Origin: Candidatus Omnitrophota bacterium
Lineage (GTDB): Bacteria; Omnitrophota; Gorgyraeia; Zapsychrales; Fredricksoniimonadaceae
Assembly: GCA_028870995.1 (NCBI GenBank)
Contig: JAGWOI010000013.1
Coordinates: 1-62,948 of the forward strand
Direction of reading: 5' to 3'
Length of the DNA: 62,948 bases
Shown: positions 12,165 to 17,768 of the stretch, in pieces
Layout of the letters: each line of letters begins with the position of its first letter
How positions within the stretch are numbered: position 1 is the stretch's first letter
Position numbers and translations under genes: made by a program
The notes under the pieces: generated by a model
The model's database searches: none
What the model was told of the DNA's origin: nothing
What the model saw: the letters and a program-made list of their open reading frames with translations, nothing else

Positions 12165-15100
12165 GCCTAAAAACTGGTGCAGGTCCCCCAACGGCTTGAT
12201 ACGGATGATCACAGGTTCAAAACCGGGCGCGTTTTGCAGTTCTTGCAGCTTGGCCGGATCCAGATGGAAGGCGATCCCCTCCCCGGCATTTTGGATTTCC
12301 AACGGCGTTTTATTGGAGGTAAAATCGATACCGCCCTTGTCGCTCAGCCCCGGATTATCGGAAATCCCCCTTTGGGGATTCGCTTCCCGCACCGCCTGGA
12401 CAAAAACATTACGGAACTCCTGTTTGGAAATCTCCTGGACATAGCCGTCCAGTTCTCCATGCCTTACGCCCTTGAAACCGCGCAAACGCAGCAGGGCATT
12501 GGCCATATTCATAAACAGAGAGTTGTTTCCACCGGTAAAAACATAGGGCGCATGGATGGCGGTGTAATAAAAATCAGCGATGTGCCAGACCGCTGACAAT
12601 GCATCTTGCTTCAAAAAGGCTGGCGCCAGGAATTCCTTCAAATTTTCAAACATGACAGCGAACCGGGCATTGTCCCCGGGAAAACGCCTTACGCCCGCAA
12701 CCTTGTGGATGGTGGCCTCCGTATAAAAAGGCTTCAACGATGGCGGGATGTAGGGACTGTTCCTGTGGGCGCCCAGGATCATTGTCCGGTTCATGCCCTC
12801 CACGGCACGCATGAATTCTTCGGAAGTCTTGACCCGCCCTTGTTGAATGCCATGCAGCAATTCCAAGAATTCCGCGCGTACGTCGTAATTGTTCGCTTTA
12901 AAATTCTCTTCAACCGCCTGGCCGTTGCGGCGACTCATTTCCTCTGGGGAGATCTCTGAGGCCGTCTCTAATAAGACCTGCCCGCGCTCCCCGGCATGGG
13001 CCATGGCCGCATCCTGTAAGACCGCCGCGTCAGGCTGCAAAATCCCTTCGAAAAACTTCAAAAAAGGCCTGGCATTGCCCTCGTTCCATCCCCCCCGTTC
13101 GGATTCCAGCTGAGACAGGTAATATTGGATCCGGCCGATATAAAACGCTGCCAGTTTTTTGTGCAAAGCTTCTCCCCTATCCGTTGCCGGCAGCGGATAA
13201 CCGAATTCGGCATCGGAAAGCCATATACCGCGCTCTCCGTCCATCCACCCTTCCATTAAATTCTTCAACTTAAAATCCGTCACCTGGATATTCAGCCGGA
13301 TGAGTTTTTCCAGAAAAGCACTTAAACGCACATAACGTTCCGGGTCCGAAAAATAACTGCTGGAAAGCTCGGCAAGAGACTTGCCCCTGATCTTTTCAAC
13401 GGCGATATAAGGATATTGCAGCCGGCCGCCGATAAATCCATGCCCCAGCAGGGCCGGTCCCACTCCTTTGCTGCCTGCATTGCCGATATTGCTGACCAAG
13501 GAAGTAAAAATATTGGACTGTGTCATGGACATCGATCCCGATAAAGACTTGAGATCCGGCATGCGGATGATCCAATCTGCATCATTCAGCGCGTAAATGA
13601 TATTGGTGTTGCCGCTGCCGATGCGGATGAGCTTGCGGCCATCGTAATAGAATTGACCTTCATGCCCGTTGATCCCAAGGAGCCCGCTATTAAAATTCGT
13701 GGCCATGGCCATATCAGGAGGGAATTTCATTTTGCCCATATCAATAACCAGCCTCACACCCCTTTCATCTTTAAAAATGCCGGAACCCCGCGTATCAATA
13801 CCCTTCTTCTGCCAATCCTTAAACATGCCCTTGAAAAACGGGACGGAATTTTTCAGCCCCTCAGGACGTAAATACGTGTCATACACCAGCTTTCTTGCGC
13901 CGAACAAGCGCCTCCATAGAACAAAGAATTTCAGGATAAAATCCGACCTCATCTTCCGGCTGAAGGACTTAGGGGTGGTGGTCATGGTAAAGGAGACCAT
14001 GCGTTGACCACTGGGATTATAGACGATTCTAAAAAAGGTGGGGATGGCCTCTCCTTGCCAAACAAACTGCACCAGGACGGTGTCCTCACCGGGCCCGCCC
14101 GTACGGTTTCTCCATTGCTCGTTTATATGAACGTGGGAAACCGGCGGAAGCCCCGGCATCTCTTTGAAGATCGTATCCAAAATAGAGGTTATTTGAGGGG
14201 TGTATCGAAAATGGTCGTCGCCTTGCCCCTCTCCCTTACGGGAGATCATGGCCCGGTCCAGACCTCCGCTGAATGATTCTTCTTTCTTAACAAAAACGCG
14301 GTCGTCGATCATTGTCTCATATAAACGGACCTTCTTATTGACCAAATTTTGGAGCGAAAGGCCTCTCATATCGGAATACTCCACCCGGGCATTGTTCCAA
14401 ACGACCCTTTCCAAATCCTGGCCCCTGAAATCATACCATTCGTAGGTATGCGCAATGGAATGGTCCGACGGAACTTGAGTTGAAAGGTACTTAAAATCCA
14501 CCAATTTGACATCCTCCAGGCGTCCCCCGGCATCAAGCCTGAGCATAATATTCTGGGGATGGAGATGGCCGTGAACAAACCAAAGGTTGCTGCTAAACCT
14601 TAATGACGCATCGACCACCTGCCTGATGGGCTCGGCAACGTCGTTAAAACGAATTTTTGTATGCCTTAAAACATATTCTAAATTCTCATACTCGGGGCTG
14701 ATGCTGTTTAGATCCAATTCATAATAATTTCGATCATCGCCGGGCAGAATAAACATGGGCACCACTCCCGGCCGTCGCTCGGCCGCAAGCTTTTCGACCG
14801 CGGCCCGCGTTTCCGGCGTGACATGCCGCTGGATGACCGTCAGGGTATGGGTACCGCCCGGTGTCACTGCGATTTCATACTCTTTATAGGCGCGGTCTGT
14901 GGCCATGCTGAAAAGCCTTTTTTCTTTTGCTCCCTCAACGGCCTTCAAACCCTCTTTTTGAAAACGCTCTTGAAGGTCAATCACCCTTCGATCGTCCCAT
15001 AAATTTTGGACGGAGACCATCGCCGAATCTGGGAGGCCTTCCCGTAAAAGCAATTCCGCAGCAAACAACTCTTGCGACAAACTCAAGATAAACGGTCTGT

Positions 15101-17768: not shown

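Follow-up and report, generated by a model that had tools for sequence, protein, structure and literature searches.

The multifunctional autoprocessing RTX (MARTX) toxins of Vibrio and relatives offer one point of reference for large bacterial proteins that carry several enzymes, and a second is offered by the Omnitrophota, uncultured, very small and probably host-dependent bacteria that are known for very long proteins. The latter reach 10-147 thousand amino acids and carry methyltransferase, HATPase_c, GNAT, HAD, glycosyltransferase and PEP-utilising cargo; the authors who studied them suspect that they are cut after translation, and say that analysis is blocked as long as the points of cleavage are not known (10.1101/2023.11.21.568195, 10.64898/2026.06.07.730766). 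Here we analyse contig JAGWOI010000013.1 of the Candidatus Omnitrophota assembly GCA_028870995.1, the whole 62,948-nucleotide stretch of which is referred to below as the window, and focus on a minus-strand gene (12144-17768, taken from the list of open reading frames (ORFs) and its translation) that encodes a modular protein of 1874 residues. This protein belongs to a large family with conserved ends and a variable middle, and its modules are separated by copies of a four-residue sequence, D-x-A-M. We find that D-x-A-M is a short linear motif in flexible linkers, selected at the protein level, and the reading best supported by the data is that a protein partner recognises it there, tentatively in order to cut the chain.

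D-x-A-M enrichment in the 1874-residue protein and its family

An earlier note on this DNA had placed six D-x-A-M motifs and one variant in the protein, and every one of its coordinates was reproduced in the 12144-17768 ORF. On the minus strand, these are DMAM at residue 364 (16668-16679), in the linker following the N-terminal domain, DFAM at 566 (16062-16073), the shifted-register variant RDAM at 688 (15696-15707), DSAM at 914 (15018-15029), DRAM at 1171 (14247-14258), DMAM at 1352 (13704-13715) and DAAM at 1586 (13002-13013). The spacing is indeed domain-sized, with successive distances of 202, 348 (122 + 226 when RDAM is included), 257, 181 and 234 residues, and five of the seven sites read GCC-ATG. 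The seven Ala-Met dipeptides of the protein are all found at the six DxAM sites and RDAM 688, and no DxAM at all occurs in the 14,689 residues of the window's 33 other ORFs.

The estimate that fewer than one such motif should occur by chance also held, as 0.20 copies are expected from the protein's own composition and six are seen (Poisson P = 8e-8), and a maximum of four was reached in 20,000 composition shuffles. As a post-hoc correction, all a.bc, ab.c and abc patterns of the protein were scored (approximately 24,000 tri-residue patterns), among which D.AM is the single most extreme, with a P value reached in none of 1000 shuffles.

Homology searches recovered more than 3,739 related proteins, every named match being from Candidatus Omnitrophica, and the N-terminal domain is encoded at a minimum of 537 loci (at least that many) in GTDB species representatives; the statistics below derive from the 120 best homologs for the family and from the best 80 of these loci for genomic context. 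At least 11 paralogs among these 80 loci come from one metagenome-assembled genome (MAG). Members have in common their first ~335 residues, which comprise the signal peptide and N-terminal domain, and a tail of ~60 residues, while the middle varies and includes Pfam matches to kinase, methyltransferase, GNAT, GGDEF, HATPase_c, HAD, glycosyltransferase, PEP-utilising, response regulator, HTH and other domains. The architecture runs from a predicted Sec-type signal peptide through a conserved N-terminal domain of ~310 residues and shuffled enzyme modules of cytoplasmic type to a conserved 60-residue tail.

Enrichment of the motif extends to the family as a whole: the 120 best homologs contain 454 DxAM sites vs 20.3 expected, and D.AM is the top enriched gapped tripeptide family-wide, even with the conserved domains included. 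In the GTDB loci, the family genes carry 199 motifs in 106 thousand amino acids (1.88 per 1000 residues) vs 39 in 243 thousand (0.16 per 1000) in the neighbouring ORFs. The median density is 3.4 motifs per 1000 cargo residues, members spanning 0 to 9, and a single protein has up to 12 motifs; homolog P0032 has 12 sites and P0093 has 11 [DN]xAM sites. Long multi-domain relatives of the protein's kinase-like module that do not have the N-terminal domain show no DxAM enrichment, and the motif is therefore a trait of the N-domain/tail family rather than of long Omnitrophota proteins in general. A chance origin of the motif was considered and ruled out by the single-protein calculation, the post-hoc correction and the family counts.

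The family is also poor in cysteine, at 0.12% of its residues, compared with 1.17% for the window's other ORFs. Cysteine is absent altogether from 21 of 121 members, and the 1874-residue protein has none. Together with the predicted signal peptide, this scarcity is in keeping with a protein that is exported or translocated unfolded.

Several third-party MAGs with family genes (L001, L002, L005, L006 and others; CAZFON, CAZKUL, CAYZLU and similar) are titled 'uncultured Planctomycetales bacterium', and these titles may be mislabels because all named protein matches are from Candidatus Omnitrophica. Tandem pairs of family genes on the same strand occur at loci L015 (9964-14671 and 14619-21024) and L025.

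Position of the motif in linkers and at module boundaries

Homology between the modules of paralogs breaks at the motif, as the earlier note had asked to see: 12.6% of cargo homology blocks cross a motif, compared with 54% when motif positions are randomised, and block starts concentrate 0-30 residues past the Met, with block ends concentrating 0-30 residues ahead of the Asp. Of 11 Pfam domains assigned in six homologs, not one has a motif inside it, and the majority are bracketed one by one. The two conserved ends are likewise set apart, as a motif lies within 60 residues past the PRKYFSGG end of the N-terminal domain in 92% of members and within 40 residues ahead of the tail in 61%, vs 7% of random 40-residue windows. 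Intermotif spacing is bimodal, with distances either of up to 50 residues, corresponding to tandem copies in one linker, or of 150-600 residues. The flanks of the motif are rich in A, T, S, G, P and N and poor in W, Y, H and F, and no Cys occurs in them.

In the 1874-residue protein itself, the boundaries of homology agree with this pattern at individual sites. Matches to homolog P0001 begin at residues 578-579, next to DFAM 566, matches to the kinase-like module begin at residues 904-939 around DSAM 914, and those of P0002 and P0009 begin at residues 1579-1590, at DAAM 1586.

AlphaFold models were obtained for residues 1-420 (mean predicted local distance difference test score (pLDDT) 65.7) and 880-1874 (mean pLDDT 55), the alignment of the latter being shallow because the search gave just 45 relatives, so that about half of that model is of low confidence. 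Segments with pLDDT below 50 contain or border motifs 364, 914, 1171 and 1352. DMAM 364 is modelled as coil, and most residues of 332-376 fall below that value (332-350, 358-364 and 369-376); DSAM 914 lies within such a segment, and DRAM 1171 is coil with pLDDT ~30. DMAM 1352 immediately follows the fourth, folded module, where pLDDT drops from 80 to 48, and DAAM 1586 has pLDDT ~57 and sits in a short low-confidence helix ahead of a confident Fic-like domain. Motifs 1171 and 1352 lie exactly on either side of the confident module at residues 1190-1350. All five motif sites covered by the models (364, 914, 1171, 1352 and 1586) are thus outside confidently predicted domains. Neither of the two outcomes that the earlier note had named as refuting it, a lack of DxAM enrichment in homologs or a placement of the motifs inside folded domains, was therefore observed.

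Selection on the motif at the protein level

Codon use was analysed at 205 motif sites. The Asp of the motif follows the codon usage of the gene background, Ala is encoded by each of its four codons, GCC and GCG being slightly over-represented, and none of the flanking nucleotide positions is conserved. These observations bear on a suggestion made in the earlier note, namely that the motif is a DNA micro-homology used to swap cassettes. The sequence would then be GAY NNN GCN ATG, and cargo would recombine between paralogs as proposed for VENN-type junctions. The shuffling of modules, the break of homology at the motif, the many paralogs per genome and the GCC/GCG excess before ATG are all compatible with such a role; however, the eight of 12 nucleotides that are fixed are all dictated by the amino acids, with third positions free, and the substitutions at the first motif position follow side-chain similarity rather than sequence identity. 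At that position Asp is enriched 22x, Asn (AAY) 5.2x and Ser 1.9x, with Thr at 0.89x, whereas Glu (GAR) is depleted to 0.34x although it shares the GA start with Asp. The micro-homology suggestion is not supported by this comparison and is, in our estimate, the least probable of the explanations considered here.

The fourth position is similarly selective, with Met at 22x and Gln at 2.3x vs Leu at 0.88x and Val at 0.76x, which speaks to another DNA-encoded alternative, that the Met codons are internal translation starts, or start-codon relics of once-separate genes, and that modules would also be made singly. Such starts would account for the Met that ends every motif and for the T, S, N or A that follows, which resembles common bacterial second residues. 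Shine-Dalgarno-like sequences nevertheless precede 12.7% of motif Met codons vs 12.2% of other internal Met codons, the products expected of GTG and TTG starts (Val and Leu) are not enriched while Gln is, the strict Asp and Ala would have no explanation, and modules initiated in this way would have no signal peptide. We consider this alternative very improbable. With third positions free, Asn as a substitute, Glu depleted and no Shine-Dalgarno excess, the constraint acts on side chains, and the choice between protein-level and DNA-level selection posed in the earlier note falls to the protein.

At the third position Ala alone is accepted, with Ser, Gly and Val not exceeding 0.9x, and the shifted registers DAM, D..AM and D.A.M occur at 1.0-1.2x (DAM at 0.99x). 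The status of the variant RDAM 688 is accordingly uncertain: it does lie in the linker between the two duplicated domains, as first described, but since the family shows no enrichment of the xDAM register, the case for it is one of position. Of 485 alignments that span a motif, 182 preserve it (49 expected), even though the identity of the flanks is just 26%, and replacements at aligned motifs are mainly NAM, DAQ and DAL. The resulting linker consensus is D-[RQLA]-A-M-[TSNAV]-[ASVGT], without wider context and with variants of the form [D>N]-x-A-[M>Q].

These preferences can also be read without any partner, as a structural linker element in which Asp or Asn caps the N terminus of a helix and Ala and Met, as helix formers, follow. 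The classical N-cap residues D, N and S rank in the order D > N > S here, Met is replaced mostly by Gln or Leu, both of them helix formers, and modelled helices begin at D914 and just past D1837 in the tail. Thr, however, is a classical N-cap residue as well and is unenriched, the near-absolute Ala and Met are far stricter than helix propensity explains, and at linker sites the motif is followed by T/S/N/A, then A/S/V/G/T, then unbiased sequence, which is not helix-like; the low pLDDT at these sites points the same way. A helix cap is, on balance, an improbable account of the motif.

Two sources of sequence variation were consulted. GTDB representative genomes contain no same-cargo orthologs for a comparison of motif conservation, and the public sequencing runs that contain the contig have an identical sequence, with no informative variants at the motifs. 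Mine-drainage samples are among the sources of the contig. Metagenomes with the contig also hold diverged short contigs that match the N-terminal-domain part only (16650-17500) at less than 95% likeness, and these appear to be paralogs from the same community.

A linker motif probably read by a protein partner

Proteolytic processing at D-x-A-M into single modules is the most likely of the specific readings, and we favour it tentatively, as somewhat short of an even prospect. It is rated likeliest because the motif separates the N-terminal domain, the cargo modules and the tail from one another, is often present redundantly in a linker and is followed by small residues; redundancy of this tandem kind and small residues past the Met are both typical features of the sites of trans-acting enzymes. 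In the proposed mechanism, an endopeptidase, acting in trans or forming part of the N-terminal domain, would recognise and cut D-x-A-M, probably after the Met, so that P1' would be a small residue. Its substrate, the exported precursor, would on this view be a polyprotein, divided into single enzymes, plausibly effectors against a host or prey cell. The wider scenario, in which each genome encodes dozens of exported paralogous precursors, each with a conserved delivery domain and a string of cytoplasmic-type enzymes that a dedicated endopeptidase releases as single effectors acting on or inside host or prey, is possible, and we hold it more loosely than cleavage as such.

A competing account of the same protein-level linker evidence is that the motif is an uncut recognition handle, gripped by a chaperone, a secretion or translocation machine or a modifying enzyme, and that the protein works as one chain. 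Tandem copies within one linker fit avidity binding, no protease has been found, and the conserved tail has its own DPAM, so that one reader could bind both tail and linkers. No candidate reader has emerged either, and the position of the motif at unit boundaries, including right past the N-terminal domain and right ahead of the tail, is more naturally that of a separator; the small residues past Met, moreover, resemble protease P1'/P2' preferences. We therefore regard an uncut handle as unlikely, if less so than a helix cap.

Several observations weigh against proteolytic processing and need to be set beside the evidence for it. The earlier note had every module boundary marked, which overstates the case: some boundaries of the 1874-residue protein have no motif, namely that between the Fic-like module and the tail, and none occurs within residues 692-913. 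Nor is the motif obligatory in the family, given that its density varies from 0 to 9 and that some members, P0070 among them, have none. The structural comparison amounts to five sites, since 566 and 688 lie outside both models, and a linker assignment from the 880-1874 model by itself would be weak, over half of that model being of low confidence. The DPAM of the tail may be structural because it seems to start a helix in the model. The protein has no protease or autoprocessing domain by Pfam or NCBIfam, and no protease or secretion gene is a conserved neighbour in the 80 loci; the N-terminal domain has no relative in Pfam, NCBIfam, a PDB profile search or Foldseek, and its invariant columns include no His and no Cys. 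The sequence occurs in DNA runs only, with no RNA runs holding it. The earlier inference of a protease or autoprocessing site is thus partly supported, in that the breaks at boundaries and the protein-level constraint favour a recognition or processing site.

Module anatomy of the protein

The protein opens with a predicted Sec-type signal peptide at residues 1-26 (17691-17768, minus strand, as are all features of this section unless stated), which reads MRTPLAYILTLFIFLANSIGPMPAGA / E, with an AxA-like end that the family conserves, and for which the sequence and the family consensus both argue; the AlphaFold model places a helix at residues 4-18 in this region. The N-terminal domain follows at residues 27-334 (16767-17690) and ends in the invariant PRKYFSGG. 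It is 50-71% identical to more than 120 homologs, has ~90 invariant columns, and in this protein displays the family signatures WVNLSPYE and GRDLLxEDY as well as the PRKYFSGG end.

At the opposite end, the C-terminal tail (residues 1810-1874, 12147-12341) reads GGIDF ... FHLDPAK-LQELQNAPGFEPVII, and its residues 1810-1868 are 50-70% identical to more than 100 homologs with the family pattern GGID[LF] ... FHLDPAM ... NAPGFxPVII. Its DPAK (residues 1837-1840, 12249-12260) is DPAM in most homologs. In many of homologs P0001-P0120, the N-terminal domain ends in KYFSGG[VIM]D[LFY]AM (~16660-16790 here), which resembles the tail start GG[IV]D[LF] merged into the motif. It may be that cargo was inserted into a once-contiguous N-terminal domain and tail; no cargo-free members, with the N-terminal domain fused to the tail, occur among the fetched loci, where short ORFs are tail-less and fragment-like.

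Between the two ends lie six modules. Module 1 (residues 368-565, 16074-16667), between motifs 364 and 566, has no family match in a profile scan. Module 2 contains a duplicated domain of ~90 residues within residues 570-913 (15030-16061), the two copies of which are 42% identical (E = 1e-24): the first copy forms module 2a (residues 570-687, 15708-16061), and the second, with an unassigned stretch and no motif inside, forms module 2b (residues 692-913, 15030-15695). Homolog P0001 also has two copies of this domain.

Module 3 (residues 918-1170, 14259-15017) is kinase-like, of the APH, choline-kinase or EcKL type. A whole-protein Pfam scan with E values up to 1 returned three weak kinase-type matches and nothing else, all below the curated cut-offs (17.4 bits vs 22 for EcKL, 13.1 vs 29 for choline kinase and 12.5 vs 23.2 for APH). 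The loop that reads HGDLHxxN in APH and choline kinases is HGHLHPQN here, the usual catalytic Asp being replaced by His, whereas the downstream VDFKY keeps its Asp. HGHLHxxN is also found in many homologous kinase-like modules, which may be inactive or mechanistically different enzymes. An exhaustive search of 1.84 billion representatives gave 45 remote relatives of the 1874-residue protein, almost all of them relatives of this module. Word-indexed homolog searches with the cargo regions 520-1719 and 900-1874 gave no match, an outcome probably due to the word prefilter.

Module 4 (residues 1175-1351, 13716-14246), with its confident model at residues 1190-1350, appears to have a GNAT-like fold. 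Foldseek matched GNAT domains (the ICL2 C-terminal domain, SpeG and Rv1916; E = 4e-3 to 5e-2), and because it returned no query coordinates, these matches are only putatively assigned to module 4. Module 5 (residues 1356-1585, 13014-13703) is an orphan with one remote relative in the 1.84 billion representatives and no detectable relation to module 3. Module 6 (residues 1590-1800, 12369-13001) is modelled with pLDDT ~90 and appears to have a Fic-like fold, the best Foldseek match being FICD (E = 7.8e-4, match probability 0.97, with a low TM score because the query is multi-domain); neither a Pfam model nor a PDB sequence search gave a Fic match. The catalytic HxFx(D/E)GNGRxxR motif of Fic proteins is incomplete, reading HAPYVFTGGNNSLFMNMANALLR, in which the His and GN are kept and the acidic residue and both Arg are absent.

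Genomic neighbourhood

The neighbours of the gene in the window are housekeeping genes, including those for radical-SAM, oxidoreductase and ThiC proteins, and the gene directly downstream encodes a radical-SAM/BATS enzyme rather than an immunity protein. No neighbour of any kind is conserved across the 80 loci, whether protease, secretion, transporter, immunity or recurrent small gene. A plus-strand ORF of 612 residues without a Pfam match lies at 17926-19764, and a homolog of it adjoins family genes in four of 80 related loci, for example in L074 at 6892-8751.

Comparison with known systems

A literature search returned no description of the N-domain/tail family or the DxAM motif. The family defined here has more than 3,700 members, and its module boundaries carry a simple four-residue mark under protein-level selection, which offers a testable rule by which the proteins can be divided for expression and for structure prediction. 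The motif also provides a specific peptide for metaproteome searches, and linker peptides could serve as bait for a reader enzyme or receptor.

By analogy, the 1874-residue protein would work most like the multi-effector toxins of the MARTX type. Both are large proteins with conserved ends and a variable, shuffled string of effector enzymes, secreted in MARTX and predicted to be so here, and in both the linkers are unstructured with a short sequence preference, from which effectors are released singly in MARTX and would be released by putative cleavage here; the sets of effectors vary between paralogs and strains. The differences are substantial. The whole-protein Pfam scan found no glycine-rich RTX or MARTX repeat regions, there is no Peptidase_C80 domain by Pfam or NCBIfam in a protein that has no Cys at all, and an N-terminal, Sec-type signal-like segment without a transporter neighbour stands in place of type I secretion. 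MARTX linkers have Leu at P1, in place of which D-x-A-M is the code here, and the phylum is another.

The protein also recalls polymorphic toxins, whose boundaries are marked by VENN in CdiA and by PxxxxDPxGL in Rhs, in that a short peptide divides a conserved delivery part from variable cargo and cargo is swapped between paralogs at that peptide. Those systems, however, have one boundary, one toxin and an immunity gene, whereas the motif here marks most boundaries, and Pfam detects no filamentous haemagglutinin, Rhs/YD or CdiA repeats and no pre-toxin domain. A minimal motif between functional units is shared, too, with viral 3C/3CL polyproteins, in which P1 is Gln or Met and P1' is small, and with fungal Kex2-processed repeat proteins, and the alternation of Met and Gln ahead of small residues resembles a P1/P1' pattern. 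These are viral or eukaryotic systems with known proteases, in contrast to a bacterial protein that is predicted to be exported and whose protease is putative.

Closest by origin are the long Omnitrophota proteins, which come from the same phylum and carry the same cargo repertoire as the N-domain/tail family; the N-terminal domain, the tail and DxAM are undescribed in the two studies of them (10.1101/2023.11.21.568195 and 10.64898/2026.06.07.730766). Should D-x-A-M prove to be a cleavage site, the family would represent a bacterial polyprotein strategy comparable to that of MARTX, with another delivery domain and another code, and this code would, for the first time, provide a rule by which long Omnitrophota proteins can be divided into functional units.

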